The notes: generated by a model from the letters alone, not told the origin. 64,000 nt of DNA from a virus (IMGVR_UViG_3300020047_016550:1-64000); one strand, 5' to 3'; shown: positions 5,516 to 32,550, counted from the first letter of the stretch. Translations and numbers: made by a program.

Positions 5516-5563
5516 ACGTAATGTTTAAAAAAGAAACCCGCACATGCGGGTTTCAAATATACT

Positions 5564-5920
5564 TTAGTTTTCCTCAACTTGCTGCGCGCCCCAGTCATTT
5601 TCTGTCAAATCCATCTGGTTTGGCATCCATCCGATCATAACTGAATCGTCGGCCGCTTTTAGGCAAAAATGCCCTCTTAAACGGATAGGCACGTCTTTTG
5701 CCTTGATTTTTTCGTTTTCCGTAAAAGCAAAATTTTTAAGCACCCCGGCCCGGAACGCCGGAGATATTGTTTCTTTTGCGTCAACAATGTCCTGGGCGCT
5801 TACGATTACTTCTCCCTGATAAAAAACGTACATTCTTTTTCCGTTCCATCCTTTGCGAAAAATTATAAATTTTCCTGTTTTTGCAAGTTCAGAAGCCTGC
5901 CCGAAAGTTAATCCCTCCAT
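5564..5920 (-). CDS. tad2: DUF2829 / Tad2-like immune-signal sponge
   Basis: LTFGQASELAK...RKGWNGKRMYVF...GWMPNQMDLTENDW matches the family pattern FGxALExxK..RKGWNGK...GWxxSQxDxLAxDW. Start moved to MEGLTF at 5920, overlapping the upstream stop. Confidence 0.8.
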   Translation of the reverse strand: MEGLTFGQASELAKTGKFIIFRKGWNGKRMYVFYQGEVIVSAQDIVDAKETISPAFRAGVLKNFAFTENEKIKAKDVPIRLRGHFCLKAADDSVMIGWMPNQMDLTENDWGAQQVEEN

Positions 5921-6153
5921 GTCATTGCTTTTATTGCCCACATCTGGGCGGTTTGTAATTCGGTAATTGTAATGGAACATAAACGTTTTTGTTCCGGAGA
6001 TTCCGTTACGTTCCGTAAGTTGTGCTGTTCGTCAATCAAATCCGCAAAGCGTTTTTTTGTCTGGTGAATGGCATCATTGTTACCGGGATTGAATGTGATC
6101 CCTACTGCTTTTTCGCCGAATGTCAATTCGCGCGTTTCTAATTCTTCTGGCAT
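5908..6153 (-). CDS. Acb2/Tad1-like helical-hairpin protein, putative nucleotide-signal sponge
   Basis: GITFNPGNNDAIHQTKKRFADLID...RLCSITITELQTAQMWAIKA resembles the recalled FNPxG..IKxxxAxLID..R..AxTxLExAxMWAxKA family. Confidence 0.6.
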   Translation of the reverse strand: MPEELETRELTFGEKAVGITFNPGNNDAIHQTKKRFADLIDEQHNLRNVTESPEQKRLCSITITELQTAQMWAIKAMTWRD

Positions 6154-6206
6154 ATTAAATTGTTTTGGGTTTTACTAAGCCGCCCATGGCTGTTATTGAA
6201 AAAATT

Positions 6207-7037
6207 TTAAACCGAAAGAAGTTTTTCAAAATCACTTTTCAGATAAGGAATGTGATACGGAACAACGGCTTTGTTTTTCAAATCTACATAATAAAGTATC
6301 AACCTTCTGATTATGCAGTCATATTCCGTTTCGAGAATATACGCATATCCGGAAACCTGCAGGCCGTAATGATAAAAATTGCAATCTTCAAAATGGGATA
6401 AAGGCGGAAGCATTTTCAGTTTGTATCTGGAATATGTTTCAATTCCCCTACGGATATTTGTTTTATAATCCGTAATGTCAACAATTCTTTTTCCTTTTGA
6501 TTTCCCGACTTCAAAAATTTTATCCGATGTTCCGCATATACCGTGCTTAAATGAAGCGATTACCGCTTCCGGATACAGTCTTTTTGCGTCGGTATGGAAA
6601 GAAAGAACCTGTTTCATCATTTCTACGTTTTCTTCCTGGGAAGATTCAATTGCTTCTCCTTTTGCATGGGATTCTGCCGCATTATGAAAATTGGTTCCCT
6701 GGCTTGAACTGTAATCGCTTATCTGTTTCCAGTCTTTCTTTTTTTTATCAGCAGCAATCTGCATCAGTTCTTTTGAATAATATTTCATCCCGCTTTCACG
6801 GAGCATTTTACCTCCTGAAGCTTTTGACATCATTTCCGTATCAAACTTGTTTTTGAATTTTCCCAGAAAAGAACTCATGCTTTCGAATTCCCGTCCTTTC
6901 TCGTCAAAATATTTATGGCCCGGTTCATAAAGCCTTACGCCTCCCGAAAACGGCTGTAAGACATTTACGATTCCCGCGGGATGAAAATCATTCTTACTTA
7001 CATTCTTTGAGCTGGATATAATGTTCATTTTTGTCAA
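6207..7037 (-). CDS. PD-(D/E)XK (RecB/lambda-exo-like) exonuclease
   Basis: GTNFHNAAE, GICGTSDKI, DITDYKTN and YGLQVSGY motifs. Confidence 0.85.
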   Translation of the reverse strand: MTKMNIISSSKNVSKNDFHPAGIVNVLQPFSGGVRLYEPGHKYFDEKGREFESMSSFLGKFKNKFDTEMMSKASGGKMLRESGMKYYSKELMQIAADKKKKDWKQISDYSSSQGTNFHNAAESHAKGEAIESSQEENVEMMKQVLSFHTDAKRLYPEAVIASFKHGICGTSDKIFEVGKSKGKRIVDITDYKTNIRRGIETYSRYKLKMLPPLSHFEDCNFYHYGLQVSGYAYILETEYDCIIRRLILYYVDLKNKAVVPYHIPYLKSDFEKLLSV

Positions 7038-7413
7038 TGTTGTATTTTACGGTAACATCAAGAATTATTCCTCTTTTTTTACTGAAAAGAAGTTTGAATG
7101 CATCAAAAATGGTTATCGGAAATTTCACTTTTTTAATTACCGAATGTTCTTTATTGAAACTTCTTTCAACAGCCATCAGCGAAATGAATTTTTTGAGTAT
7201 CGGTTTACTCACCGAACTTATATTGTTTATCCGGCCATATTCGTCATGGAGTGACATTATCGCGTTAACACTCATTTTTTCAAGTCCGGATACCACTTCA
7301 AACAAAAATATTCTTTCCCTCGTGCTTAACTTCTCAAATGCCTGTAAAGGCGAACCGCCGCATGAAGCGACGGCACAATCCCAATACAGGTCAATAATTT
7401 CTACTGATTCCAT
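6994..7413 (-). CDS. Hypothetical protein
   Basis: 139-aa ORF tightly packed in the leftward operon. Confidence 0.6.
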   Translation of the reverse strand: MESVEIIDLYWDCAVASCGGSPLQAFEKLSTRERIFLFEVVSGLEKMSVNAIMSLHDEYGRINNISSVSKPILKKFISLMAVERSFNKEHSVIKKVKFPITIFDAFKLLFSKKRGIILDVTVKYNIDKNEHYIQLKECK

Positions 7414-8117
7414 TAAAAGTCTTCCCCCTCTGTTATTTTAGTTTGTTTTCCTTTTCCCTTTTTTGTGGTTTGCGGAACTTCAACAAGCTCCGGCTCCAAC
7501 GGTGCAAGGTCATTCGGTAAATAAGCAACACCTCCGTTTGCTTCAATAATGGCCCTTGCTTCTTCCAGCAGTTCTTCCGGAGAAATGGTTTCGTTTTCTA
7601 TGCTTTTGTGAATCTCTTCATACTGCTGGTATTCTTCTTTGTCTTTTGCGGTACGCATTTTTTCAAAGTTAAAATCCATTACCAGCTGCTTTTCGTTCAC
7701 TTTGACTTCGCCGGAAAGATAAGCGCGTATTTCTTCAACAAGGATATCCCATTCATCTTCCAGGTTTGAAAATGCCGGATAATCTCCTTCGGTCAAAAAC
7801 GGGGTAGTTACCGAAAACCATCCGCCGGTAAGGTCTGATTTTACTTTTACGGAAATGGTAAAACCCTGGCTTTTGCAGTTGATTGAAACAAGTTCCGTTT
7901 CATAGCGGGCTTCACGTTTAAGGTGACAGATGTTTATTGCACGCTGGATAAAAGGCTCGCATGCTTTTTTCAGTTCCGTGTGCGCCGGCGCGGGACACTT
8001 TTTTGTGTAGTTGTTCGGGAAACTGAAATCCCCTGATTTTTCCGTTGAATCATAACCCACTTCAAGGCCTTCAACACCGTTTCTTTTAAATTTTACGGAA
8101 TTAATTACTTTGCTCAT
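7413..8117 (-). CDS. Hypothetical protein with acidic tail
   Basis: Likely start MSKVINSV at 8117. The longer track call overlaps the upstream gene in another frame. Ends in EGEDF like several native genes. Confidence 0.65.
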   Translation of the reverse strand: MSKVINSVKFKRNGVEGLEVGYDSTEKSGDFSFPNNYTKKCPAPAHTELKKACEPFIQRAINICHLKREARYETELVSINCKSQGFTISVKVKSDLTGGWFSVTTPFLTEGDYPAFSNLEDEWDILVEEIRAYLSGEVKVNEKQLVMDFNFEKMRTAKDKEEYQQYEEIHKSIENETISPEELLEEARAIIEANGGVAYLPNDLAPLEPELVEVPQTTKKGKGKQTKITEGEDF

Positions 8118-8442
8118 ATTGATATAAAATAAATGTTTCTTCTTTGGCCAATAAAAGATATGCTTCTTTTTCGGCAATTTTAAATCCTTCCAGCTTGAAA
8201 TACGTTTTACGGGTAACCACGGATATACAGATAAGTTTTCTGTAAACAAACACATATCCTTCTTTGGCTTTTTTGGAAACAAAAGAATAAAGCATTTTGT
8301 CAAGTTCCTGGAACTCGACGCAGGCTCCGCAAAAATAATCCGTATCCGGATCCTTTTTAACCGCTTTTTCTTTTCCTCCCAGGTAAGCCCAGGCTCCTTC
8401 ATTTCTTACTACGGACATCTCTTCTTCGTTTTTCTCTTTCAT
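8101..8442 (-). CDS. Hypothetical protein
   Basis: Start placed after the hairpin/U-tract cassette at about 8450-8485. Stop overlaps the next start. Confidence 0.6.
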   Translation of the reverse strand: MKEKNEEEMSVVRNEGAWAYLGGKEKAVKKDPDTDYFCGACVEFQELDKMLYSFVSKKAKEGYVFVYRKLICISVVTRKTYFKLEGFKIAEKEAYLLLAKEETFILYQYEQSN

Positions 8443-8514
8443 TTTTTCAGTAAAGAAAAAGCGCCCTTCGGCGCCTTTCCTTAACTTTAACATTTAACCG
8501 AAAGAATACCGGAA

Positions 8515-8545
8515 CAAATATAATAATGTTGTACCGATATGCAAC
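8515..8545 (-). promoter_or_regulatory. Bacteroidota sigma-A-type promoter with 18-bp palindrome over the -33 box
   Basis: Minus strand reads GTTGCATATCGGTACAAC-attat-TATATTTG. -7 consensus is TAnnTTTG; spacer from GTTG is 19 nt. Confidence 0.65.
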
Positions 8546-8584: not shown

Positions 8585-9154
8585 TTATCCGGGATTTTCT
8601 AAAAACAGTTTCATTCTTTCCAAAACATCCGCCGGCGTATGTCCGTCAAACTCAATCAAAGGATACTCATAATCGGGTATTTTAAATAAATCCCATTCGT
8701 TAAGCCTGTAATGATTGGATATCATTCCATGCGGCAAAAGCGCAATCACGATAAACCAACCGCCGCCAAAACAAAGTTCTTTATCGGAATGATGCATGCT
8801 TTTATGAACTACGTAAGGATTACCCTCAATTTTCGCAAGCTCGTTAAAAAACGCAGCATTGTACATTTTACGGAATTCATAAAGCTCTCTGTAACTGTGG
8901 TATCCGTCCGAATATTTACTTTTAAATTCGCTTGCCGTATTATCTATAAGCATCTGAACTTTTAAAAATCCTTCTTCGTCATTAATCTGTTTTTCGTTTT
9001 TTTCATGGGAGAAAAAATAGCTTTCAAGGATTTCCAGTTCTTTTTTGTGTTTCCTTCTTTCAGAATACAATGCTTTTGAGTATGCGGCCAAAATAAGAAG
9101 GCCCGAAAATAAAACGACGTTTAAGATGTCGTATTCCTGTAAAAGTTGTGTCAT
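8585..9154 (-). CDS. WDGH-domain protein with N-terminal TM helix
   Basis: SDGYHSYRELYEFR...HKSMHHSD...WFIVIALLPHGMISNHY...WDLF...FDGHTPADVLER fits the recalled WDGH family. Start MTQLL follows a hairpin cassette. Confidence 0.7.
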   Translation of the reverse strand: MTQLLQEYDILNVVLFSGLLILAAYSKALYSERRKHKKELEILESYFFSHEKNEKQINDEEGFLKVQMLIDNTASEFKSKYSDGYHSYRELYEFRKMYNAAFFNELAKIEGNPYVVHKSMHHSDKELCFGGGWFIVIALLPHGMISNHYRLNEWDLFKIPDYEYPLIEFDGHTPADVLERMKLFLENPG

Positions 9155-9221
9155 CTGTTTTTTGTTTTTAATATGAAAATTTAAATTTAAACCCTTTGAT
9201 AAAAAGCCCATTAAAACGGGC

Positions 9222-9281
9222 TGATAACGGTCGATTAGCGCAATTCCGCTGCGCTCCACTTCGCCCAGCTTTGCGTTGGGC
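9222..9281 (-). mobile_element. attC-like (59-base-element-like) site
   Basis: Minus strand GCCCAAC-gcaaagctgggcgaagtggagcgcagcggaattgcgctaatcgacc-GTTATCA: RYYYAAC...GTT ends, 60 bp, imperfect internal palindrome, GC-rich in very AT-rich flanks. Confidence 0.5.
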
Positions 9282-9898: not shown

Positions 9899-9930
9899 CA
9901 AATATAAATAACGTTGTACAAATATGCAAC
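9899..9930 (-). promoter_or_regulatory. Leftward sigma-A-type promoter with the same palindrome
   Basis: Minus strand GTTGCATATTTGTACAAC-gttatt-TATATTTG, spacer 20 nt. Confidence 0.65.
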
Positions 9931-10200
9931 AATACTTTCCTTTTTTTGCAGTGAAAGACGGGGCGGTAGGGGTCTTTTCCGAAAAATCTTTTTGCCCGAC
10001 GGTAGGGGGGGCTATGTTTCATTCGCCGGCCTTTTAAAAGATAATCACTTTTTTAAAAAGGATTTTACTTGAGGAAGCACTGGGGAAATGACGGCCGAAA
10101 ATCGCTTCGCTCTTTTCGTGCCGTCAACTTATGTGTGTATGCGGGTAAAAAATCGCTTTGCTCTTTTTTATTCGTGTGTGTGCCCGGCTGAGTGAATGTT

Positions 10201-10293: not shown

Positions 10294-10507
10294 CACTCCT
10301 GGCTTAGTTAATATGTCACACATGGAGTTAGAAAGGGTCGAACCTTTCTGTAAAAATAGTAGGGTGTAGTAACGCACCTAAAAATGATCAGAGGTTGTGA
10401 CCCTTAAGGTCATTCACGTAAATTCTCTTTATCACGACGATAAAGAAGATCTACGTTATTACGGAGGGTAGGCCGTGATATAATAAAAGGCCTCGCGGCC
10501 TTTTATT
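10294..10507 (+). ncRNA. Candidate structured RNA of tandem hairpins
   Basis: Consecutive stems: agaaagg/cctttct, ggtg/cacc, aatgatc/ggtcatt, tctttatc/gataaaga, ttattacgg/ccgtgataa, aataaaaggcc/ggccttttatt. No family recognised. Confidence 0.35.
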
Positions 10508-10521
10508 TTTGTTTAAACATT

Positions 10522-10611
10522 ATGGCAGCATTTACCGTAGTCACCAGGGAGAAGTGTAAACACTTCTACGTTGCAACTGAACACGGGATCAGGTGTGTTC
10601 ATTGCGAATAA
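10522..10611 (+). CDS. 29-aa Cys/His micro-protein
   Basis: MAAFTVVTREKCKHFYVATEHGIRCVHCE*, preceded by the standard hairpin-TTTT-TTAAACATT-ATG cassette. Confidence 0.55.
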   Translation: MAAFTVVTREKCKHFYVATEHGIRCVHCE

Positions 10612-10739
10612 TGATGAAGGCCCGCATTCGCGGGTTTTTATCTTTTTTGGGCATGTATCCCGTACGTGCCGGGTTAAGGGTTAAAACCTCCACGATTCCT
10701 CCCGGAGTCGTGGGGGATTTTTGTTTTGTTGAAAACGTC

Positions 10740-10865
10740 ATGAAGAAACTCATTTTCATTATTTGCACGGGCATGATAATATCACTTCTGTTGATATCAT
10801 GCGGAACAAGCTATAAAAGCACGTCAACCCCTTACAGGGGAGAATACCGATGTGTAAGCAGATAA
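10740..10865 (+). CDS. 41-aa mini-lipoprotein
   Basis: MKKLIFIICTGMIISLLLIS-CGTSYKSTSTPYRGEYRCVSR*: basic N-terminus, hydrophobic core and lipobox Cys. Confidence 0.6.
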   Translation: MKKLIFIICTGMIISLLLISCGTSYKSTSTPYRGEYRCVSR

Positions 10866-10899
10866 AGGCCCTACGGGCTTTTATTTTTGTTTAAACATT

Positions 10900-11103
10900 A
10901 TGAAAAAGTTATTTATGCCCGTAATGGTATCGTTTTTAATTGGGGTTATTGCTGGAAGTATTACTTCAAAAAGAAGTTCTTTCCTTGACAGTAACGGAAA
11001 TGTAATTCCGGATGAAGTGGTTGAGCTGTATAGTAAAAGCCATTTTGTGCTACTTGACAGCAGCGAGTATGAAATGATTGACCGGTATTACTGGCCGGAT
11101 TAA
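10900..11103 (+). CDS. Small membrane-anchored protein
   Basis: 67 aa with an N-terminal hydrophobic helix. Cassette upstream. Confidence 0.6.
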   Translation: MKKLFMPVMVSFLIGVIAGSITSKRSSFLDSNGNVIPDEVVELYSKSHFVLLDSSEYEMIDRYYWPD

Positions 11104-11141
11104 GTAAGGGCCCTACGGGCTTTTATTTTTGCTTAAACATC

Positions 11142-11315
11142 ATGAAAGAAAAATTACTCGGACAAATCCCGAAAGCTTTTTTTGCCTTAATCTTTTTGGT
11201 TCTGGCAATAATCCTGTTCTCAACGGGAAGCGGAACATTGGCCGCATTGGGAATAGTATCGGCAATTATCGGTATAGTAACCGTACAGCGTATTCTAATT
11301 GAACTTTTTGAGTGA
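11142..11315 (+). CDS. 57-aa two-TM membrane protein
   Basis: Not in the track. MKEKLLGQIPKAFFALIFLVLAIILFSTGSGTLAALGIVSAIIGIVTVQRILIELFE*, cassette upstream. Confidence 0.6.
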   Translation: MKEKLLGQIPKAFFALIFLVLAIILFSTGSGTLAALGIVSAIIGIVTVQRILIELFE

Positions 11316-11409
11316 TGCAAATGTCGCTTCGCTCCATTTACCGTTAATCAGGAACATTACGATAAGGCCCCACATGCATGGGGTTTTATTTTTATTAAAA
11401 CACATAATA

Positions 11410-11688
11410 ATGAAAAACGTAAAACACACAATCATGAAAAACTTAAAAGATTTATCGTTAACGGAAGAAAAAGTAATTGTTGATAAAAAATTCATCAGCT
11501 ACTTTCTAGAAGATCGTGTAAAAGCAGATGTAAACGATCATGCAAGACTTCTTGCTTCCTTTTTAGAAACTAATTACTTTAAAGACAGAAAAGAATTGAC
11601 TGATTTTCTGGAAAAAGAAACTTATATGCTTCTTCTTTCTGACAAACTTGAAGATTACGAAAAAGAAATCAGCCAATTTAATGTCTAA
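11410..11688 (+). CDS. Hypothetical protein
   Basis: Start after the hairpin at 11364-11390. Alternative ATG at 11434. Confidence 0.55.
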   Translation: MKNVKHTIMKNLKDLSLTEEKVIVDKKFISYFLEDRVKADVNDHARLLASFLETNYFKDRKELTDFLEKETYMLLLSDKLEDYEKEISQFNV

Positions 11689-11743
11689 AAATAATAACCC
11701 CTACGTGGGGTTTTATTTCTTTCAAACTTTAATATTTATTTGC

Positions 11744-12286
11744 ATGAAAGTAACAGCAAAAAAATCGTCAATGGGCCTTTTGGCCAAAGGATTCCACGTA
11801 GGAACAATTAAGTCAATCGTAGAAACTACGATTGCAAGCGCAGATCTTAAGGAAGGCGCTTATGCGGATGAAACTCCGCAGCTCGAGATTACCCTGGGCG
11901 TGGGTAACCAAACCACAAAGGCATGGATCATGCTGAAAGGTTATCGCAAGTTTGAAGAGTTCGTAAAAGAACTCACGCCCAAACAAGCCGCAAAATACCG
12001 TCCAGGCGGTTCTTCGGGTTATGCAGTTTTGATTGCAACCAACACCCGTGTTGAGGACGAAGCCCTCACGGAAAAGTGCATGGAGATTGTAAGCAATTTT
12101 GCCGCAAACGCCGGTGCCAAAGACGATGAAGAAATCGAGATCCAGGATCTCGTAGGTTCTGAAATCGGCTTTAAAATCGGTGAGGGCAACAAAGGCCAGA
12201 ACCGTGTAGTCGGTTTCTACGACAAAGCTTATGCTGCTTCCCAAATGGAAAAAGCTGAAGAAGCTGCCGAAGATTTGGAAGATTAA
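11744..12286 (+). CDS. SSB/DUF669-like protein, paralog A
   Basis: MKVTAKK start, beta-rich, acidic tail EEAAEDLED, followed by a strong terminator. Aligns by eye with 12565..13008. Fold call is inference. Confidence 0.5.
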   Translation: MKVTAKKSSMGLLAKGFHVGTIKSIVETTIASADLKEGAYADETPQLEITLGVGNQTTKAWIMLKGYRKFEEFVKELTPKQAAKYRPGGSSGYAVLIATNTRVEDEALTEKCMEIVSNFAANAGAKDDEEIEIQDLVGSEIGFKIGEGNKGQNRVVGFYDKAYAASQMEKAEEAAEDLED

Positions 12287-12287: not shown

Positions 12288-12315
12288 GAAAAAGCCCTTC
12301 GGGGCTTTTCCTTTT
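12288..12315 (+). terminator. Intrinsic terminator
   Basis: aaaagccc-ttcg-gggcttttcctttt with a cUUCGg loop. Confidence 0.8.
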
Positions 12316-14743: not shown

Positions 14744-14794
14744 AAATAAAAACCGTTGCTCCGGCGCGGTTTTTTTTTATTTATTAAAACAATC

Positions 14795-15721
14795 ATGGAA
14801 AAACAGGAACAAAAAATTAAAGGTCACATAAGAATGACCGATGAAGAAATGACTCTTGAAACGGGAGAAAAGCTGTTCAGGATAGAACTGGCCGTTGACT
14901 GTAGATGGGGAAAAGCCGGCGAAAAAGGCGGATGGATCCAAAGTTTGGATAATATATCAGATGATGCATGGGTTTCCGATAATGCAAAAGTTTATGGTAA
15001 TGCACGGATTTCTAATGAGGCATGGGTTTTCCGTAATGCAAAAGTTTGTGATAATGCACACGTTTACGGCAATTCATGCATTTACGATAATGCACACGTT
15101 TACGACAATGCGCACATTTACGGTAATGCACGGATTTCAGATAATGCACAAATTTTCGGTGATTCAAGAGTTTGGGCCAATGGAAAGGTTTTCGGTAATG
15201 CACGGGTTTACGGTAAAGCATGGGTTTACGGTAATTCACATGTTTTCGGTAAAACAGAAGTTTACGGTAATGCACGGGTTTGCGGTAAAGCAGAAGTTTA
15301 CGGTAATGCACGGGTTTACGGTGATTCACCAGTTTTCGGTAATTCACATGTTTTCGGTAGTGCACGGGTTTACGGTAAAGCATGGGTTTACGATAATGCA
15401 CGGGTTTACGGTAATTCACATGTTTTCGGTAAAGCAGAAGTTTACGGTAATGCACGGGTTTGCGGTAATGCACGAATTTTCGGTAAAGCATGGATTTACG
15501 CCGATAAATGGTCTAAATCACCTTTACAGATACAGGGAACAAAGGACTTTGTATGCAATTGTGCAAAAAACCGTTTATGCATAGGTTGTAAAGATAAAAC
15601 ATTTGAAGAATGGCTTGAATCTTACGAAAAAATAGGAATAGAAAATGATTACTCCGAAAGTGAAATTCAAGAATACAAATCTTACATTGACCTGGCAATC
15701 CGTTTATACGGCCAAAAATAA
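14795..15721 (+). CDS. Hexapeptide-repeat (left-handed beta-helix) protein
   Basis: Long run of (V/I)(Y/F)G(N/K)A(R/H/E/W) hexads encoded by 18-bp units, with GEKGGWIQ N-cap and IGCKDKTFEEW C-terminal motif. Confidence 0.85.
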   Translation: MEKQEQKIKGHIRMTDEEMTLETGEKLFRIELAVDCRWGKAGEKGGWIQSLDNISDDAWVSDNAKVYGNARISNEAWVFRNAKVCDNAHVYGNSCIYDNAHVYDNAHIYGNARISDNAQIFGDSRVWANGKVFGNARVYGKAWVYGNSHVFGKTEVYGNARVCGKAEVYGNARVYGDSPVFGNSHVFGSARVYGKAWVYDNARVYGNSHVFGKAEVYGNARVCGNARIFGKAWIYADKWSKSPLQIQGTKDFVCNCAKNRLCIGCKDKTFEEWLESYEKIGIENDYSESEIQEYKSYIDLAIRLYGQK

Positions 15722-15778
15722 GACATGAAAAAACCGGAAACGGTTTTTTCTTTTGTAAACATTTAATAATCAAAAAAC

Positions 15779-16408
15779 ATGGAGTTAAAAATTCAAATCA
15801 GGATTAAAATTGATGCTTCTGAAGAAGTAATGAAAACGGACGGTGATTTAATCATTTCCGAAGCATACCGTAATGCCGCGGCAAAAATACTGATGGAAAA
15901 ATGGGAAAGTTCGGTCGGGAAATATGCCAGAAACGGAAATACGGCAATCACTACGACCGAAATAGAGTTCACCAAGCAGAACCAGGTTAAGACGGACGGA
16001 AAAACAAATCCGGAAGACGATAAAGACAAAAAAGTAAAAGAATTGTGGGAACAGATCTTTAAATCCACTTTTCCCCTGGGCAAAGACCAACCGTACGGCA
16101 TTACTGATTTCTTGGAAAAAATCCATATTCCGGTCAAAAAAGAAAAACCTGCTTTATCTGAATCTGAAAAAGACGAATTGATTTCGGATATGCTTCAAAA
16201 AAGCATTCGGGCCGTTGTTCCGAAAAGTTTTTTAATGCTTGAGTTTGACGGTTTGGTTCCTAAAAAACCCCAGGATTTAAAAAAGAAACAGAAACTTTCT
16301 GAAATTCTTACCATGGCCCATACCGCTTTGATGATGGAAGGAAACCCGGAAGACCTGGAGACTGCCGGTAAATTACGGGAACTGATTTTTAAGTACGCAG
16401 ACCGTTAA
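15779..16408 (+). CDS. Hypothetical protein
   Basis: 209-aa ORF with cassette upstream. Confidence 0.65.
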   Translation: MELKIQIRIKIDASEEVMKTDGDLIISEAYRNAAAKILMEKWESSVGKYARNGNTAITTTEIEFTKQNQVKTDGKTNPEDDKDKKVKELWEQIFKSTFPLGKDQPYGITDFLEKIHIPVKKEKPALSESEKDELISDMLQKSIRAVVPKSFLMLEFDGLVPKKPQDLKKKQKLSEILTMAHTALMMEGNPEDLETAGKLRELIFKYADR

Positions 16409-16548
16409 ATTCTTTTTGCCGTTTCGTGTTTTGTTAAAATGGTTGTTCTTTTAGGCAAAAAGAAGTGATTTAAGAGACTTTCTTGTGTAAAACATACTTA
16501 GGTATCGTTTGAAGCAGGAAAGTCTTTTATTTTTGCTTAAAACATTTT

Positions 16549-17193
16549 ATGAGAAAAATAGAGATTTCAGTTTTCAGTTACCGTGAGCTTACGGATGAAG
16601 CAAAAGAAAAAGCAAAAGAATGGATATTCGAAAACGGGCCCATGTGCTGGGAAGATTTACGAAATACCCTGAAAGAATTCAAAAAACCGATTCCCGGTCT
16701 GGCCATTAAAACGAAATACACCAGTTATCCGGTAATGTATGTTCAAAACAATTGTTACATAGATTTCAATGACAGACTTGTAAATCTTTCTTTTTATCTG
16801 ATGACTGGACTAAGGTTTTACAAATGGCTTGTCAATAATTTTGACCGTTATCTGTACCGCGGAAAAGTTTACGGCGGTTTCATATCCGGGCATCAGGGAG
16901 TTAAGCCAAAGCACCAGAGTAAAGTTATCAGTGAAAAATATGACTGCCCCTTTACCGGAATGATTTATGATGAATTCATAACCGGTCCCATATCCGAATA
17001 CATAAGTTTTTACGGAAAAAACATACGTGAAGAATATTCTTTTGTGGATTTTATGGAATTCCTTTCAAAATCGTTTTGTCAAAAAGCGGAAGAAACAATT
17101 TCCCATGAATATTCGGATGATGAATTTTCTTCCGATTTTTGTGATGCAAACAATTTTGAATTCTACGAAGACGGAAGACATTACAACGGTTAA
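16549..17193 (+). CDS. Conserved phage hypothetical protein
   Basis: YRELTDEAKEKAKEW start, CPFTG, and ANNFEFYEDG end are typical of a widespread uncharacterised phage family. Confidence 0.65.
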   Translation: MRKIEISVFSYRELTDEAKEKAKEWIFENGPMCWEDLRNTLKEFKKPIPGLAIKTKYTSYPVMYVQNNCYIDFNDRLVNLSFYLMTGLRFYKWLVNNFDRYLYRGKVYGGFISGHQGVKPKHQSKVISEKYDCPFTGMIYDEFITGPISEYISFYGKNIREEYSFVDFMEFLSKSFCQKAEETISHEYSDDEFSSDFCDANNFEFYEDGRHYNG

Positions 17194-17248
17194 TCTTTAA
17201 AATAAAACTTCCCGCGCGGAGTTTTATTTTTTATCAAACATTACAACC

Positions 17249-20463: not shown

Positions 20464-20488
20464 GGCATTTTCTTTTTCATTAAACATC

Positions 20489-20794: not shown

Positions 20795-20824
20795 AAGCCC
20801 GTGGGCTTTTATTTTTTTTTAAAC

Positions 20825-21238
20825 ATGAAAACTCAAATCAAATTACAAGGCCAAGAAATTAATATCTCGGCAAAACTTACCGCAAAATCTGTATATTTTC
20901 CAAACTCGGATTCAAAAACAAAGCACAACCAGTACAGTATTTCCATTTCAAATGGTTCAGAAAATGTATCATTTAACTTTTATGATTCACAAGCCAATTT
21001 GAGCAAAACAGAGTTAAACGCAAACGGTTTGAAATATGCCCTTTATTGCTGTCTGACTGATTCTAACTATGCAGATTCAAATTTTGAAGATTTTTGCTCA
21101 TCACTTGGATATGATGCAGATAACAAATACCCCAAACGAATTTACTCGATTTGTAAAAAAGCAAATGAAAAGATGAATTTGATATTTTCAGACATTTATG
21201 AGGCTATGGAAGAATTAAGAGAAATTTTAGGCGAATAA
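20825..21238 (+). CDS. Conserved phage hypothetical protein
   Basis: ALYCCLTD...FEDFCSSLGYDAD motif recalled from early phage proteins. Confidence 0.6.
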   Translation: MKTQIKLQGQEINISAKLTAKSVYFPNSDSKTKHNQYSISISNGSENVSFNFYDSQANLSKTELNANGLKYALYCCLTDSNYADSNFEDFCSSLGYDADNKYPKRIYSICKKANEKMNLIFSDIYEAMEELREILGE

Positions 21239-21498: not shown

Positions 21499-21604
21499 TA
21501 CCACCAACCCCGGACCGATTGACGGCAAAATAACAGTAAATTAAAAGTGCTTTTCAATCTTTCAAATGAAAGCCCCGTTCGCGGGGTTTTCTTTTTTCAT
21601 AAAC

Positions 21605-22606
21605 ATGGAAAAATTAGAAACAATTGAAATTACAGAAAAGAAAAATGTATTTTTCAGTAAATACGCCGGAAAGTTTGACACTCCAAAAAAAATAAACAGA
21701 AGTTCCAAAAGTATACCGGAAAACTTCATTGATAAAATAGAAAATGGAGAATGTAACAGCGCAGATATTGAAATGCTACAAAATATCGTGCCAGTTTATA
21801 CTTACAAAACCTGTTTAACAATACACGGAAACTTTCCTGACATAAACAGAACAAGAATAGGTGTCTATAAAAACATCATTCAAAACCAAAACGGAAGTCT
21901 TGAAATACGATGGAGTGCAATTGACAACCACAAAAAAAAGCAAATAAAGGAATATATACGCCCCTATTCAGGTTACAATGTCCAAGAAAACAGCACATCC
22001 GGAATATATTTTGAAAAAAATGTAGTAACAAGCAACAAGGCAGAAGCTTATAAAGTACTTGCAGAAATGAAAGCAGAAGCCGAAAATATGAACATACCAG
22101 GAATGATGGCAAAATTCTATGTAATGGGATATTCATATTGGGGCAGATACTATATAACACTTACAATTTTACCGTTTAAAATACACGGAGATCCTTTGGA
22201 AATAGCAGCAACAATAGTAGGAGTAAACAGTAATGAAATGCTTGAAACTTACAATGCAAGAAAAGCAGAACAAGAACGGAAAGACAAAGAACACAAAGAA
22301 CAAATTGACCGAATAAACAATATAGTAGAAGAACAAATGCAAAAAGCATTAGAAGGAATAAAGCATCTCAGTAAAACCAAAATAGAACCGGTGCCCGGAT
22401 CCGTTTATATTGTACCTACAGTTTCCAATTCAAAAAAACCATGTTACCGTTTTTATAAAATAACAGAAAAAGGCAGTTTTGGTAGAGTGAAAGTTGAAAC
22501 ATACCTTGCTGAAAGTCCGGAAATTGACAATAGTAAGTTTACTCCATTAATGAAAGGTAAACAACTAAAAGTTTCTGAAATAACAACAAAGGAAGTTTAT
22601 AAATAA
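21605..22606 (+). CDS. Hypothetical protein, atypical A-rich composition
   Basis: Long ORF with cassette upstream, CG-poor core. Confidence 0.65.
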   Translation: MEKLETIEITEKKNVFFSKYAGKFDTPKKINRSSKSIPENFIDKIENGECNSADIEMLQNIVPVYTYKTCLTIHGNFPDINRTRIGVYKNIIQNQNGSLEIRWSAIDNHKKKQIKEYIRPYSGYNVQENSTSGIYFEKNVVTSNKAEAYKVLAEMKAEAENMNIPGMMAKFYVMGYSYWGRYYITLTILPFKIHGDPLEIAATIVGVNSNEMLETYNARKAEQERKDKEHKEQIDRINNIVEEQMQKALEGIKHLSKTKIEPVPGSVYIVPTVSNSKKPCYRFYKITEKGSFGRVKVETYLAESPEIDNSKFTPLMKGKQLKVSEITTKEVYK

Positions 22607-22647
22607 ATATAAAACCCCCGTTCGCGGGGTTTTATATTTTCTTAAAC

Positions 22648-22917
22648 ATGAAAAAAACTTATGACGTACTTTCTCCCGACGGTTTTCCCATTAACCCTGA
22701 AATGGATTATCCAAACATTAAAACCGCAATCAAAGAAACCAAAAAATTTGCCAAACGGTATATCGGTCAGGGATATTACTCTTCAAACAAGGGACGTATT
22801 CCCATTGATTACATACCAAGCGAATGTACCCTTGTTGAAAAAGACGTAAACGGCAAACAAGTTTCTATTCCTTTGTGCGATTATTTACCCGGACGTTTTA
22901 ACCAACCTTATTTCTAA
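22648..22917 (+). CDS. Small hypothetical protein
   Basis: 89 aa with cassette upstream. Confidence 0.6.
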   Translation: MKKTYDVLSPDGFPINPEMDYPNIKTAIKETKKFAKRYIGQGYYSSNKGRIPIDYIPSECTLVEKDVNGKQVSIPLCDYLPGRFNQPYF

Positions 22918-23513
22918 TGTATACGGAACTTACACAACATGTCAGGTATATGCCTGAAAGCAGTAGAAAACCATATTTTATTGCAAAAAATCAGGAAAAT
23001 TTTATTAAACTTGTTCCCGTATTCAAATCTGAAGAGAAATTTGACTTTGAAGAGTTTATTACTCCAAGACGGGTATTTTGGGCAGATAATGAAGAACTGG
23101 AAAATGTGGAAAAATTTTTTGAAAACGTAAATGCTGTCATACAATCACATCATCAAAGCATATTTTTGATTAAAAAAATGGCACTTGAAAAACTTATCCA
23201 AGAATCAGAAAAACAGGCCGCGGCCTTTTTTCTTTTAAAAAACAGAAAAATGAAAATAAAAAAAATCAGGCTGGAAAAAGCCTTAATCACGCCGCAACAA
23301 AAGATTTCCGTTTCAATGGAAGCTGAAATCGAACCGGGAGAAAATCACGGGGAATGTCTTTTAGAACTGGAACAAAAGATTAATGAGGCAATCGGAACCG
23401 AAGGAACCCTCGAACTTTATCCTTCCGGTGTTTCAAAAGTTACAAAGCCCCAAAAAGCAGAACCGGAAGAAACTCCCGTAATCGAAAACAACGAAGAAAA
23501 CGACGATTTTTAA
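22917..23513 (+). CDS. Hypothetical, probably two genes in one frame (second start 23250)
   Basis: Internal hairpin/U-tract cassette at 23211-23236 followed by in-frame ATG MKIKKIR. Confidence 0.5.
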   Translation: MYTELTQHVRYMPESSRKPYFIAKNQENFIKLVPVFKSEEKFDFEEFITPRRVFWADNEELENVEKFFENVNAVIQSHHQSIFLIKKMALEKLIQESEKQAAAFFLLKNRKMKIKKIRLEKALITPQQKISVSMEAEIEPGENHGECLLELEQKINEAIGTEGTLELYPSGVSKVTKPQKAEPEETPVIENNEENDDF

Positions 23514-25892: not shown

Positions 25893-26613
25893 TCATTTTA
25901 TCCAAAAAGAAGGAAACCAGGATCCGGTAACAATTGCGGTAATAGGCGCCGGCGGAAACGGCTCACATTTTCTTTATTCACTGGCGGCATTACAGAATGT
26001 TCTTTACCAAATCCGGGGCCAGGAATTGGCCGTAATGGTATATGATGATGACCTGGTTGAAAAACACAATTGCGGAAGGCAGTTGTTTTTCGAACAGGAA
26101 ATAGGAATGTCAAAATCAAGAGCCATAATCCAGAGAATAAACAGAAGCTATGGCTATTCATGGGAATTTCGTGAACAAAAGATGAAATCGTGCCCATCGG
26201 CAAACATTGTCGTTACTTGTACCGATAACATTGCTTCGCGAAAAATCATAGAAAAAGCACGTTCCAAAACACATCAGCACAGATACCATAACCATTATTC
26301 CAATTTGTATTGGCTGGATATGGGTAATGACCGAAATTCAGGAAACGTGATTTTGTCAACTTTTGTAAAATCCGGTAATAATTCACTTAAAAGCGTATTT
26401 GAAATTTTCCCGGAATTGATGAAAAAAAAAGAAGACAATAAACCTTCATGCGGAATGCTGGAATCTTTAATGCAGCAAGATGTTTTTATCAATAAAATAA
26501 TTGCGACACTGGCCGCAAAAATGTTGAAAACGCTGTTTTTGGATTCTACAACAAACCACCATGGAATATTTGTTGACATAGAAAATCCTTCAATGACAGA
26601 AATACCCTGCTGA
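25879..26613 (+). CDS. PRTRC ThiF-family E1-like enzyme
   Basis: VIGAGGNGS, DDDLVEKHNCGRQLF, TCTDNIASR, YWLDMGND, PSCG and QDVFIN. Confidence 0.92.
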   Translation: MHLINHFIQKEGNQDPVTIAVIGAGGNGSHFLYSLAALQNVLYQIRGQELAVMVYDDDLVEKHNCGRQLFFEQEIGMSKSRAIIQRINRSYGYSWEFREQKMKSCPSANIVVTCTDNIASRKIIEKARSKTHQHRYHNHYSNLYWLDMGNDRNSGNVILSTFVKSGNNSLKSVFEIFPELMKKKEDNKPSCGMLESLMQQDVFINKIIATLAAKMLKTLFLDSTTNHHGIFVDIENPSMTEIPC

Positions 26614-26642
26614 CGCGGGGTTTTTCTTTTATGTAAAATTTT

Positions 26643-26837
26643 ATGGATGATATCAACTATGTGCCAAAAGAAATACTAAAATTGGCCAAAGACGTAATTT
26701 TGCTCGGGGAAAAAACAGAATTTCATTTAAACGGACATGAAATAACGGTAGAAGTGGGTGAAGAAGAAACAGTGTTTACCAAACTTATGAACTGGAGTAA
26801 AACCATTCCGAATTCGGAAATAATCAAAAAGGCTTAA
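26643..26837 (+). CDS. Small hypothetical protein
   Basis: 64 aa between two hairpins. Confidence 0.5.
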   Translation: MDDINYVPKEILKLAKDVILLGEKTEFHLNGHEITVEVGEEETVFTKLMNWSKTIPNSEIIKKA

Positions 26838-26850
26838 GGCCTTTTGTTTT

Positions 26851-26889
26851 TTTGAAAATATTAAAAAAACGTTGTATGTTTGTGCAACA
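26851..26889 (+). promoter_or_regulatory. Sigma-A-type promoter, -7 box inside the 18-bp palindrome
   Basis: TTTG(26851)-N20-TATGTTTG. Palindrome GTTGTATGTTTGTGCAAC at 26871-26888. Confidence 0.7.
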
Positions 26890-26898
26890 CAAAAGCGT

Positions 26899-28545
26899 AT
26901 GAAAAAACCAAGAGATTATCAGATTGAAGGCGTTGTAGCTTCGGAAGCTGCATTAAAAAGAGGCGTAGACAGACAGCTTATAGTTTACGCAACCGGATTG
27001 GGAAAGACATTTACGGCCGTTACCATTGCAAAAAAAATGAAAAGAATGCTATGGCTGACACACCGTGAAGAATTGATAGGACAGTCGGCCCTTTCTTTTG
27101 CTTATGACATATTTGAATATGAAAAAGCAAACATCATAAGCGACGAAGGAATCATTCCTCTGCTTAAAAGAATCAAAAAACAAAAGTTGGACCAGCCTTC
27201 CATTTTTAATCCCGATGCCAATTTTTATTACGAAATAAAAAGAAACATCGGAATCATAAAAGAAGAAAACTTTGATATTGACGCAAAATACGTTTTTGCT
27301 TCGGTACAGACTCTTTACAACAGGCTTGAATTAATATCCCCGGATCATTTTGACGGAATAATCATTGACGAAGCACACCTTTCAATGGCCGAAACATGGA
27401 AAGCGTGCGTTGAACATTTTAAGTTCAGGATTCTTATCGGACTTACCGCTACACCGAAAAGGCTTGACGGATTGCCGTTGACCCATATTTTTAAAGAAGT
27501 GGTTATTGAAAAAGACATTCTTTTCGGAATAAAAAACGGATGGCTTGTTCCCATAAAAGCGGTAAGGGTTAAAACAAAACTGAATATTTCAAAAGTTTCT
27601 TCAACCGGAGGTGATTTCAATACCAAAGACCTTGAAATAATTAACTGCCGGGAAAGAAATGAACTTATTGTTGAGTCTTACATAAAAGAAGCAAAAGGTT
27701 TAAAAGCTATTTTATTTTGTTCCAGCGTGCGTCATGCAATTGATTTATGCGAAGTTTTTTTGGAATACGGAATAACAGCTTCATTTGTGTGTGCTGATAA
27801 GAATATATGTCCGGACAGAAAACAACGTCTTGCAAAGCATAAAAAAGGCGAAATTGATGTAATGCTGAACGTTGACATTCTTACTGCCGGATACGACGAT
27901 CCGACAATAAAAGTAATCGGTCACGCAAGCCCAACACAAAGTCTTGTGGCATACCTTCAGAGAACCGGAAGGGGGACAAGGCCGTTACCGGGACTTGTGG
28001 ACGGACTGGACAGTGCCAAAGACCGTATTGCCGCAATCCTGAATTCCGAAAAACCGGAAATGATTCTTTTGGATTTTGTCGACATAACGACAAAACACAA
28101 CCTGGTTAACAGTTTTACCCTTGATGAAGGGAAAGAAATAGAAGATCTTGTTTTCGTAACAAATGAAGAACGTCAAAAGCTCGAAGAAGAACGTATACGC
28201 CAGCTTGAAGCAGTTACGGAAGAAACTGAATATGTTGATCTGTTAAAACTTCCAAAACATAATTCCCTTCAGTTTGCTTCAGATAAAATGAGAGAACCGG
28301 CCACTCCCGGCCAGCTTGATTTTTTACGGAAACTCGGTGTTTACCAAGATGGGGTATTTTATACAAAAGGCCAATGTACTGAACTTATTTCAAGCGCCCA
28401 GGCAAGTGCGGCCCACAAAGAACTCTTACGTAAAAACGGTTATGACATATCCATGGGATGCACCATTGCACAGGCAAATGCCGCGCTTTTGGAATTAAGG
28501 AGCAAAGAAATGAAAATGAGCACTTCGTTTAAAGGCCTTATGTAA
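26899..28545 (+). CDS. SF2 DEAH helicase (ResIII/YejH/UvsW-like)
   Basis: ATGLGKT, IIIDEAH, GLTATP, LTAGYD, QRTGRG. Confidence 0.92.
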   Translation: MKKPRDYQIEGVVASEAALKRGVDRQLIVYATGLGKTFTAVTIAKKMKRMLWLTHREELIGQSALSFAYDIFEYEKANIISDEGIIPLLKRIKKQKLDQPSIFNPDANFYYEIKRNIGIIKEENFDIDAKYVFASVQTLYNRLELISPDHFDGIIIDEAHLSMAETWKACVEHFKFRILIGLTATPKRLDGLPLTHIFKEVVIEKDILFGIKNGWLVPIKAVRVKTKLNISKVSSTGGDFNTKDLEIINCRERNELIVESYIKEAKGLKAILFCSSVRHAIDLCEVFLEYGITASFVCADKNICPDRKQRLAKHKKGEIDVMLNVDILTAGYDDPTIKVIGHASPTQSLVAYLQRTGRGTRPLPGLVDGLDSAKDRIAAILNSEKPEMILLDFVDITTKHNLVNSFTLDEGKEIEDLVFVTNEERQKLEEERIRQLEAVTEETEYVDLLKLPKHNSLQFASDKMREPATPGQLDFLRKLGVYQDGVFYTKGQCTELISSAQASAAHKELLRKNGYDISMGCTIAQANAALLELRSKEMKMSTSFKGLM

Positions 28546-30539: not shown

Positions 30540-30541
30540 TC

Positions 30542-31516
30542 ATGAACATTACAGTAAGATCAAAAGCGCAGATTGAACAGGATTTTTCCGGGTTCAAAAA
30601 ATTGATTGAGGATTACAATGCCAAAATATCAAAAATTGAAGTAAAAGACGATGTTTCCGAAACGGAGCTTTCGTTAATGCTGAAATCGTTAAACGATTTG
30701 GATAAACAGATCGACGACAAACGCAAAGAACTTAACAGTCCTTTCCAAGAACAAATTACGCTGCATAACGACGTGGCAAAGTTTGTAATGGGATTGACGC
30801 CCCAGGTATTAACCGAAGGCCGTAAAAAGCTTGCGGATTACCGTATCCGCAAGGAAGAAGAAAATAAACGGAAAGCCGAAGAGCTTAAGAAAAAAGCCGA
30901 AGAACAGAAAAAAACAATCAATGCCGACGAGGCTGAACAGAATGTTTTAAAAATCAGGCTTCTTGAGCACGCAAAAAGCACTATTCTTAAAATTGCCGAA
31001 ACCGAAACATACGAGCAGTTGAATTCCGTTTTTGATACTGAATTTCGTAAATACGGCTGGGACGAATTTAAATCGGTGGAAAAATCGGTGGAAAAAACAA
31101 AAGAAATCATCAAGAATGCTGCTTCAAGCCGGAAAGTGTTTGTAATGATTGAAGAGCCGAACGAACAGCAGCTCAAAGACGCACAAACTGTTTTAAGCCA
31201 GATTTTCAAAACCAAAACGGACATTGAAGGTTTAATCAAAAAATTGTCCGAAAAAACGGCTAAAACCGTTGAAAAAATGGAAGAAGTTGCCGTTGCGACA
31301 ATTGAAGCCAACAAGTTAACCAAAGCTTCAACCGGTTTAAGAAAAACCTGGACTTTTGATGTTTTGGACATCAGTAAAATTCCCATTGAATATCTTCAGG
31401 TAAACGAAAAAGCAATTAAGAATTACATTGCCAAAAATCTTCAGGGTACCAAAAAAGAAGAAGATGTTTCAATCGAAGGAATCCGTTTCTACAAAAAAGC
31501 AAGTGCAACACTTTAG
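30542..31516 (+). CDS. Coiled-coil phage protein (Gp157-like C-terminus)
   Basis: Long helices and WTFDVLDISKIPIEYLQVNEKAI...IEGIRFY. Confidence 0.55.
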   Translation: MNITVRSKAQIEQDFSGFKKLIEDYNAKISKIEVKDDVSETELSLMLKSLNDLDKQIDDKRKELNSPFQEQITLHNDVAKFVMGLTPQVLTEGRKKLADYRIRKEEENKRKAEELKKKAEEQKKTINADEAEQNVLKIRLLEHAKSTILKIAETETYEQLNSVFDTEFRKYGWDEFKSVEKSVEKTKEIIKNAASSRKVFVMIEEPNEQQLKDAQTVLSQIFKTKTDIEGLIKKLSEKTAKTVEKMEEVAVATIEANKLTKASTGLRKTWTFDVLDISKIPIEYLQVNEKAIKNYIAKNLQGTKKEEDVSIEGIRFYKKASATL

Positions 31517-31555
31517 AAAAAGCCCGAAAGGGCTTTTTTCTTTGATTAAATCATC

Positions 31556-31783
31556 ATGAAAATAAATTCTGTAAAAGACCTGGCAAATATGGCAGCCGAA
31601 GTTTCCGGAATTAAAGACGTAAATCCGGAATCACTCATTAAGCGCTTTTTTAAATTTACGGAAACGCAGACCAGAATGAACAGAAGTCCAAACTGGTCCT
31701 TTGTGCGTTTTATAAAAATCAGACCAAAAAAGACAAAAAGAAAAAAAAAGACGGGTCATTTAAAAAATAGTTTCAAAATCTAA
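31556..31783 (+). CDS. Small basic hypothetical protein
   Basis: 75 aa after a GAAA-loop hairpin. Confidence 0.5.
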   Translation: MKINSVKDLANMAAEVSGIKDVNPESLIKRFFKFTETQTRMNRSPNWSFVRFIKIRPKKTKRKKKTGHLKNSFKI

Positions 31784-31808
31784 AAAAACGTTGTATGTTT
31801 GTGCAACA
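31781..31808 (+). promoter_or_regulatory. Promoter/operator identical to 26862-26889
   Basis: 28-bp exact repeat TAAAAAAACGTTGTATGTTTGTGCAACA. Confidence 0.75.
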
Positions 31809-31829
31809 AATTTTAATAAAGTATAAAGT

Positions 31830-32513
31830 ATGAAAGCAAAGTCAACAGGAAACGGAGAAGGTAATTATGCTATGCCCACACCAGGTTCACAACAAGCAAT
31901 TTTAACTCAGGTAATCGATCTTGGAACACAAAAAGAAGATTTCAAAGGTGAAGAAAAATTAATCCATAAAGTGAGAATCGGATTTGAGCTTACCGACGAA
32001 TTTTATGAAAAAGGAGAGAACAAAGAGAAAGTGCCTTTTACCGTATCAAGGGATTTCACTTTTTCAACTTCAAGCAAGGCCCATTTACGAGCTTTCATTG
32101 AAGGTGCGATTGCCAGAAAAATTACCGCCGAAGAAGAAGAAGAAGGATTTGATCTTTTTACGCTTTTGCCGGGAAAAAACAAATCGGGCAATTTTATCAT
32201 CAACCTTTCAATCAACAAAAGCACAAAAGGGAAAGATTATGTGTTTATTAACAGCATAAGCCCTTTAATGAAAGGACAGGTTGAGAAAAAGCCAAAAACG
32301 GCATTGGTAAAATTTGATTTCACCAGTGATGAACCGACCGGCCGCTACCGTGATTCTTCCCACGACGTAACCGGACACATTGAAACATTCGAAGTTCTTC
32401 CAGAATACGTACAAAAGAAAATTAAAGCTTCCATGGAATACTCTTCAGTGTTTCTTAAAAAAGATACTGAAGACGGAATTTCCGAAGAGCAAAGTGATGA
32501 TGTACCGTTTTAA
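31830..32513 (+). CDS. Phage SSB-like protein
   Basis: VIDLGTQ, S.KAHLRAFIEG, and acidic C-terminal DDVPF tail typical of SSBs. Confidence 0.65.
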   Translation: MKAKSTGNGEGNYAMPTPGSQQAILTQVIDLGTQKEDFKGEEKLIHKVRIGFELTDEFYEKGENKEKVPFTVSRDFTFSTSSKAHLRAFIEGAIARKITAEEEEEGFDLFTLLPGKNKSGNFIINLSINKSTKGKDYVFINSISPLMKGQVEKKPKTALVKFDFTSDEPTGRYRDSSHDVTGHIETFEVLPEYVQKKIKASMEYSSVFLKKDTEDGISEEQSDDVPF

Positions 32514-32550
32514 CACAAAGGGCGAAAGCCCTTTTTTTTCTTTTTAAAAT

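Follow-up and report, generated by a model that had tools for sequence, protein, structure and literature searches.

The stretch analyzed here, IMGVR_UViG_3300020047_016550:1-64000 (the window), covers the initial 64 kb of a crAss-like phage record that is 73,391 bp long and has a 121-bp terminal repeat. Its rightward gene block carries about 25 short intergenic cassettes in which, as a rule, a terminator-like hairpin is followed by a T-rich tract and then by an A-run at a fixed spacing. The cassettes are strongly enriched, fold preferentially in the sense RNA, lie between non-conserved genes and are restricted to this lineage. The explanation that we prefer, at somewhat less than even confidence, is that they are composite stop/start signals by which the accessory genes would be expressed as separate modules, singly or in small groups. 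In kinship they are a variant of the PeSL-like composite cassettes known from T4-type phages and of intrinsic terminators.

The plus-strand block runs from 10.2 to 36.6 kb, and minus-strand genes lie on both sides of it, leftward from 9.8 kb, where portal and TerL are encoded, and over 73.4-36.7 kb. Twenty-five of its 45 genes are preceded by a co-oriented hairpin with an A-tract, a GC stem and a U-tract, 14 are tightly coupled, one has a promoter only and five are classed as other. A general scan found 71 terminator-like sites at 5-25 kb, compared to 20.0 ± 4.6 in shuffled sequence, and 37 at 25-45 kb, compared to 18.9 ± 4.3. With a stricter scanner, 16 sense hairpins were found at 10.2-23.3 kb, compared to 0.88 ± 0.92 (maximum 4) in 100 dinucleotide shuffles. 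Their fold energies range from -7 to -24 kcal/mol and their anatomy is that of Rho-independent terminators, with a GC stem-loop and an immediate U-tract on the transcribed strand. The stem ends 17-35 nt ahead of the ATG (17-22 nt in 13 of 24), except for two cases at 53-57 nt.

A preliminary description of this DNA had listed the starts that stand behind such hairpins, and a co-oriented hairpin was found ahead of each of them, that of 9154 (-) being an atypical member (9152..9222, hairpin at 9205-9222, about 50 nt ahead of the ATG). Starts 16549 and 18293 were absent from the list and are also hairpin-preceded. The near-identical copies that it pointed out are borne out at 10482, 10860 and 11102, which share 90% identity over 29-39 nt and border unrelated open reading frames (ORFs), and so is the near-absence of the element from the structural operon, as the minus-strand block at 36.7-73.4 kb has three clear intergenic hairpins (68107, 70045 and 71215), all beyond the window. 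Its statement that the loops are mostly UUCG, UACG or GAAA was too strong, however: about 10 of 30 are UNCG or GNRA, or roughly half of the 4-nt loops (UUCG four times, UACG once, UCCG twice and GAAA three times, one such loop occurring on the antisense reading).

Aligning the cassettes on the final G or C of the stem gives the tail consensus T4-N-T-N-T3-N4-AAA-(C/A)-A. Of 24 copies, 23-24 have T at each of positions 1-4 and 20-24 have it at positions 8-10, and A stands at positions 15, 16 and 17 in 22, 20 and 20 of them (information content 1.33, 0.98 and 0.93 bits). Alignment on the ATG instead yields at most 0.72 bits at any position downstream of the T-tract. The AAA is locked to the hairpin rather than to the ATG, which follows the A-run by 2-20 nt: AAACAT stays beside the hairpin where the ATG is more distant (15779, 17249 and 5515), and the AAA signal is missing behind hairpins that have no gene following them (12290, 36604 and 19339). 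This pairing of a T-tract with an AAA at fixed spacing is anatomy that the preliminary description did not note. On the upstream side, 17 of 24 hairpins begin between -16 and +5 nt relative to the preceding stop codon, so that the cassette fills the entire gap.

In 21 of 30 hairpins the sense strand gives the stabler fold (mean -13.2 kcal/mol, vs -11.4 kcal/mol for the antisense strand; Wilcoxon p=0.003), and G-U pairs number 28 in the sense folds vs 7 in the antisense folds. Together these biases indicate a function in the sense transcript, as had been suggested when the element was proposed to act as RNA, and argue for selection of the hairpins at the level of sense RNA. Stem sequences are not conserved. 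MAFFT with RNAalifold returned zero consensus pairs across the cassettes because the stems sit in differing registers, and an Rfam search of 5-37 kb with E up to 0.1 gave a single chance microRNA match only. Two other candidates were rejected: a DNA cruciform or protein operator is ruled out by the strand asymmetry of the folds, and a selfish MITE/REP-like element is ruled out by stem sequences that vary and by conservation that is limited to the 3' tail.

The phage has no close relatives, since its closest non-self TerL among 5.8 billion proteins searched is only 45% identical. Identity to Crassvirales terminases is 28-32%, no close locus was found with TerL as a single query, and megablast of 20 kb against a phage collection gave no match. 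Comparisons were made with four whole IMG/VR relatives (TerL identity 35-42%), as well as phi14:2 and crAss001; a rightward early/replication block facing RNA polymerase and cargo genes is a genome plan common to phi14:2, crAss001 and this phage. The same scanner found 32 intergenic terminator-like hairpins in this genome vs 5-11 in each of the four relatives, and the early block has about 25 in 26 kb, compared to five sense hairpins in phi14:2 (41 kb) and three in crAss001 (43 kb). A cassette profile, built with nhmmer from the sequences of 21 copies that match it by construction, had hits with E below 0.1 in this genome only; 305 kb of relatives and 50 kb of phi14:2 gave no hit below E=0.5. 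By the hairpin counts and this profile, the density is therefore lineage-specific within crassviruses. A search for the exact cassette motif gave 104 single hits in viral contigs, which we take as chance level because only 3 carry a hairpin, and 0 hits in metagenome contigs. The four relatives, phi14:2 and crAss001 are all far sparser, with 5-10 times fewer hairpins. The hyperplastic regions of T4-type phages have been described as comparably PeSL-dense (PMC2839356).

Cassette placement also follows gene conservation. At 26.9-36.6 kb lie a helicase gene and further replication genes, which are represented by homologues in the relatives and are for the most part coupled; those at 10.5-26.8 kb, which have almost no homologues there, are the ones boxed by cassettes. 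What is seen here is thus a repeated intergenic stem-loop with a candidate start signal, enriched among non-conserved genes in the manner of PeSLs. Pfam put names on a YdcK-type beta-solenoid (14795-15721), an RNase T/DEDD exonuclease (18735-19334) and a RadC-like JAB domain (19687-20163) among the accessory genes. The RadC-like gene is one of just two accessory genes common to a relative.

In the mechanism that we propose, the first part of each cassette would be a Rho-independent-type hairpin that folds in the sense transcript, its GC core extended by pairing of the A-tract with the U-tract, and that ends or attenuates the upstream message while leaving it a protective 3' hairpin. The second part, a 14-nt pyrimidine tract leading to AAA(C/A)A at 15-17 nt, would start the unit that follows: transcription would begin anew at the A-run and give very short leaders. 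We infer termination, initiation at the A-run and the identity of the acting polymerase from the sequence. At four core copies the host RNA polymerase (RNAP) would read a sigma-A -7 box; hairpins 18221 and 26827 would be followed by a separate box and an ordinary leader; and the other approximately 19 cassettes would be read either by an injected RNAP (probably) or through weak sigma-A recognition.

The genes of this phage lack Shine-Dalgarno (SD) sequences, their leaders are rich in A and poor in G, and TAnnTTTG boxes are found at plausible promoters, all of which points to a probable Bacteroidota host. The main element of the Bacteroidota sigma-A promoter is TAnnTTTG at -12 to -5 (PMC9723704), and the -33 element is weak or absent (PMC7366714). 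Mapped on the cassette, this box would occupy T4, A5, nn, T8-10 and G11, and A16 would be +1. Six of the 25 cassettes have a full TAnnTTTG box. The box is perfect (TATTTTTG) in the four core cassettes at 10482, 10860, 11102 and 16500, and host RNAP is their likely reader because the box places +1 on the A-run. At hairpins 18221 and 26827, as well as at 70045 (-) and 71215 (-) beyond the window, a full box follows a few nt later. A -33 TTTG at proper spacing was found in none of the cassettes, and sigma-70-type scans, the wrong model for this host, returned promoters at chance level (54 vs 55.6; 42 vs 52.4).

These boxes bear on the earlier argument that the hairpins leave no room for a promoter. 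The argument is only partly right: in its general form it presumes a sigma-70-type promoter with a leader, and it fails in this clade because the relatives fit hairpin, box and leaderless ATG into 22 nt; on the other side, 19 of 25 cassettes are box-less. Across 1.19 Mb of sequence from relatives, there are 27 instances in which TAnnTTTG stands exactly 4 nt ahead of an ATG that opens an ORF, compared to 0-8 at neighboring spacings, and many of these cases (loci with this spacing include L015, L045, L050, L064, L065 and L080) lie directly behind a terminator hairpin with 22 nt from stem to ATG. A box, 4 nt and an ATG is, as sequence, the predicted geometry of a leaderless message. The variant TAACTTTA-N4-ATG is likewise recurrent in the phage clade. 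TAnnTTT(G/A)-N4-ATG is absent from the cassettes of this genome, where its sole case is at 41296 (-), as TACTTTTG-AATC-ATG (41289-41299 (-)) ahead of the gene at 40730-41284.

Even so, the hairpins pose a problem for any polymerase that responds to them. Ten box-less hairpins stand in series at 18.7-23.2 kb, ahead of a five-gene PRTRC-like module, and at 30% termination each, <3% of host transcripts would reach that module. Passive read-through by a terminator-sensitive polymerase is therefore implausible, and either a start signal or a hairpin-insensitive polymerase is needed.

Several results weigh against initiation within the cassettes. The 19 cassettes mentioned above lack A5 (-11) and/or G11 (-5), the informative positions of the box, and G at tail position 11 (5 of 24) is not above background. 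Both bases occur together only in the four core cassettes, whose boxes are not independent because the copies form one near-identical subfamily. Leaders of less than 10 nt account for 3.7% of 5' untranslated regions (5'UTRs) in B. thetaiotaomicron (PMC7366714), and the predicted 2-7 nt leaders are neither leaderless nor typical. The T-to-A switch could also arise without a promoter, where a U-tract meets an A-rich leader. In phi14:2, moreover, a common motif upstream of early transcripts was not found. Finally, the good and probably operator-controlled promoter at 8522 has hairpin 8461 within its 5'UTR, and read-through must therefore occur at least there.

A candidate for the second polymerase is encoded on the minus strand at 45967-53232. 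This 2421-aa protein shows a weak but colinear BLASTP alignment to gp66, the virion RNAP of phi14:2, that extends through the catalytic loop (SGSDNDGD here, GSDFDID in gp66, with DNDGD aligned to DFDID), and by sequence it is a putative gp66 homologue. Searches with phmmer against PDB gave no match, and Pfam and PHROGs returned no RNAP family. The preliminary description had named this protein as the possible virion RNAP, and the homology to gp66 strengthens that suggestion. The entire rightward block of phi14:2 is early and rifampicin-resistant, and in vitro gp66 accepts only denatured or single-stranded DNA as template, like the N4 virion RNAP. A more specific version of our preferred reading, which we consider rather doubtful, is that the pyrimidine tract and A-run form the promoter of the crAss-type injected two-barrel RNAP and that the hairpin is its terminator.

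One alternative concerns evolution rather than expression and is compatible with the other models. Like PeSLs, the cassettes may serve as conserved recombination sites at which accessory genes are shuffled, a role that we regard as possible, with the balance tilted against it. It has the PeSL precedent on its side, together with the concentration of cassettes among genes that lack homologues in the relatives and the 29-39-nt copies of 90% identity that flank unrelated ORFs. However, near-identity over more than 25 nt is limited to a few copies, the best TerL match is 45%, and the exact cassette was found in no other contig.

Read-through, the interpretation offered in the preliminary description, is the main rival of the stop/start reading; we judge it less likely than not, though well ahead of the two mechanisms discussed after it. 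Here the hairpins would be ordinary terminators, attenuators or 3' stabilizers with no initiation inside them, the T-tract would be a mere U-tract and AAA(C)A the onset of an SD-less, A-rich translation leader, and either the injected RNAP would be blind to the hairpins or host RNAP would be antiterminated. The 19 cassettes without a box, the A-rich leaders found genome-wide, the position of hairpin 8461 behind promoter 8522, the encoded virion RNAP homologue and the wholly early, rifampicin-resistant block of phi14:2 with no common promoter motif all fit this account, but its premise that a promoter has no room is weakened by the leaderless geometry of the relatives. About 25 U-tract hairpins under sense-RNA selection are also hard to explain if the polymerase ignores them; an AAA locked to the hairpin instead of the ATG is not what a translation leader would give; and the relatives and phi14:2, with the same polymerase family, have far fewer hairpins. 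As for the antiterminator, Pfam found no NusG, KOW, Q or N family member among 30 early proteins, which are mostly ORFans and make this a weak negative.

RNase III cuts the early-region transcripts of T7, and the cassettes could similarly mark sites where long early RNAs are cut in the U/A-rich single-stranded stretch past the hairpin to yield monocistronic mRNAs, each shielded by a 3' hairpin, termination being incidental. We find this improbable: the sense-strand selection, the stable tetraloops, the 3' hairpin on nearly every accessory ORF and the AU-rich junction at fixed distance would suit it, but the invariant U4 right after the stem marks termination and is unneeded for a stabilizer, and we know of no processing enzyme or site consensus for this host. 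That the hairpins are N4-type DNA promoters, extruded in supercoiled or single-stranded template to recruit the injected RNAP, is very improbable, for although gp66 of phi14:2 uses only denatured or single-stranded DNA in vitro and nearly every early gene is hairpin-preceded, the template-strand fold is the weaker one in 21 of 30 hairpins (the 28 sense G-U pairs being A-C mismatches on the other strand), the stems are not conserved, the loops are mostly at least 4 nt and the A-tract/U-tract anatomy is that of terminators.

Comparison with known systems places the proposed stop/start cassettes most closely beside the PeSLs of T4-type phages, in which a stem-loop overlaps a promoter (Arbiol et al. 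2010, PMC2839356; Comeau et al. 2014, PMC4122927). The preliminary description had listed PeSLs as an alternative, and they prove to be the closest known analogue, a stem-loop plus start signal among non-conserved genes. In both, a stem-loop terminator or attenuator overlaps or abuts the start signal, the elements cluster in a hyperplastic region among ORFans, and near-identical copies stand beside unrelated genes. PeSLs, however, are about 100 bp long and carry full sigma-70 -35/-10 elements and an SD, whereas the cassettes here are 35-55 nt and SD-less, and just 6 of 25 carry a full host box. The stem-loop here is also a canonical A-tract/U-tract terminator, and the host phylum and phage order are unlike.

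With intrinsic terminators the cassettes share the GC stem, stable tetraloops, immediate U-tract, upstream A-tract and co-orientation at gene 3' ends. They differ from them in occurring serially at about one per gene, in staying T-rich for 14 nt until an A-run at a fixed position, and in overlapping stop codons while abutting the next ATG. Leaky serial terminators are known from phiX174. Phage N4 has few promoters, of conserved sequence, each with a template-strand hairpin and a 3-nt loop. The likeness to its P1-P3 promoters (PMC4496689) is that hairpin-containing signals stand before early genes in a phage that injects an RNAP, whereas the hairpins here favor the sense strand and are terminator-like. 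Thermus phage P23-45 also injects a two-barrel RNAP related to crAss gp66, which reads its pre-early units from 14 promoters with a conserved AT-rich motif and has, at one end of the genome, a conserved terminator motif of its own (PMC10770324). Its motifs are unrelated in sequence to those described here, and they were mapped by ONT-cappable-seq and ChIP-seq, while ours are read from sequence only. In phi14:2, an A/C-rich AAAACTAA stands 2-8 nt ahead of many starts (2-9 kb and 39.8-40.4 kb), and in one relative (G004) AAAAACTATCA stands 0-4 nt ahead of an ATG six times (63.2-64.1, 7.5 and 14.3-14.8 kb). Both resemble TTAAACAT of this genome but are hairpin-free.

The individual cassettes begin at the head of the plus-strand block. 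That at 10482..10524 has its hairpin at 10482-10507, the tail TTTTATTTTTGTTTAAACATT and its full -7 box at 10504-10511, ahead of ATG 10522, and is followed by a strong hairpin (10687-10716, -23.9 kcal/mol) in the cassette at 10687..10742, which serves ATG 10740. The near-identical copies at 10860..10902 (ATG 10900) and 11102..11144 (ATG 11142) overlap the stop codons at 10865 and 11103 and have full boxes at 10882-10889 and 11124-11131. A variant box, TATTTTTA, is found at 11361..11412 (ATG 11410), and across 11396-11448 the leader and start codon are duplicated as a 24-nt unit (TAAAACACAnAATnATGAAAAACG x2.2), giving gene 11410 two in-frame ATGs. At 11689..11746 the stem is 33 nt from ATG 11744, and this first series ends with a terminal cUUCGg hairpin at 12290..12309. 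The early block has two long non-coding gaps at its head, of which that at 9772-10480 contains several hairpins and that at 12310-13659 contains an iteron-like 23-bp tandem repeat (x3.7, 12343-12426) and three copies of GCGTGTGTGCGG (13572-13608). Abundant early non-coding RNAs of phi14:2 offer a comparison for these gaps.

Cassettes resume at 14744..14797 (ATG 14795) and 15727..15781, the latter with a GAAA loop, AAACAT adjoining the hairpin and 35 nt from stem to ATG 15779. The hairpin at 16471..16551 is long and imperfect, with a full box at 16528-16535 and ATG 16549, and further copies lie at 17199..17251 (ATG 17249) and 17602..17642 (ATG 17640, with the upstream stop codon within the hairpin). 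At 18221..18295 the box TATATTTG (18258-18265) is separate from the hairpin, with a predicted 27-nt leader to ATG 18293. There follow 18683..18737 (ATG 18735); a double hairpin at 19339..19419 (19339-19352 and 19363-19392, the second with a UUCG loop; ATG 19417); 19646..19689 (UACG loop, ATG 19687); 20162..20199 (ATG 20197); 20450..20491 (stop codon within the hairpin, ATG 20489); 20792..20827 (tail TTTTATTTTTTTTTAAAC, ATG 20825); 21568..21607 and 22606..22650 (both with UUCG loops; ATGs 21605 and 22648); and 23207..23252, whose ATG 23250 opens the PRTRC-like module. The last copies on this strand are at 26598..26645 (stop codon within the hairpin, ATG 26643), 31516..31558 (ATG 31556) and 32517..32553 (ATG 32551), the latter two with GAAA loops, and the block closes at a convergent junction with a terminal hairpin at 36604..36626. 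On the minus strand, the cassette at 5513..5561 has TATATTTG (5554-5561) just upstream of its hairpin (5533-5554), then TTTCTTTTTTAAACATTACGT and ATG 5515.

An 18-bp palindrome is common to four promoters (9889-9933 (-), 8515-8550 (-), 26860-26890 (+) and 31780-31810 (+)), which carry it in two geometries and are probably operator-controlled middle/late promoters. In the GTTGCA-N6-TACAAC geometry the palindrome lies upstream of TATATTTG, as at the divergent junction 9899..9933 (-), which has GTTGCATATTTGTACAAC and TATATTTG, and at 8440..8522 (-), where the box (8515-8522) is followed by a 5'UTR hairpin (8461-8474) with a U-tract and by ATG 8442. In the GTTG-TATGTTTG-TGCAAC geometry the box lies inside the palindrome. 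Here, 26827..26901 (+) combines a hairpin with AAAAAAACGTTG-TATGTTTG-TGCAAC (box 26875-26882) ahead of the helicase gene (ATG 26899), and 31794..31832 (+) has the box TATGTTTG (31794-31801) and ATG 31830 with no hairpin. A comparable motif, TGCAACCTT, occurs 12 times in another relative (G001). The ORF that opens at ATG 8442 (8101-8493 (-)) overlaps a 329-aa ORF (7413-8402 (-)) by 300 nt in another frame, which could be due to a frameshift, to faulty assembly or to a spurious ORF. ARAGORN found zero tRNA genes.

The hairpin-and-tail feature is well defined and specific, and it offers a moderate-to-good test bed for early transcription in crassviruses, members of the phage order that is most abundant in the gut and other Bacteroidota habitats. 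How early genes are turned on in crAss-like phages has been an open question since the virion RNAP was described, and about 25 aligned copies with fixed geometry provide a testable candidate. If the injected RNAP does read them, the early region would be a row of about 25 monocistronic, nearly leaderless units, and the cassettes would give the injected two-barrel RNAP family its first defined start and stop signals in crassviruses. The array also bears on promoter annotation where a -7 box and a leaderless ATG occupy 12 nt. It places a PeSL-like organization outside the T4-type phages, in a phage order of Bacteroidota habitats, and bears on how accessory (probably anti-defense) genes are exchanged among crAss-like phages.

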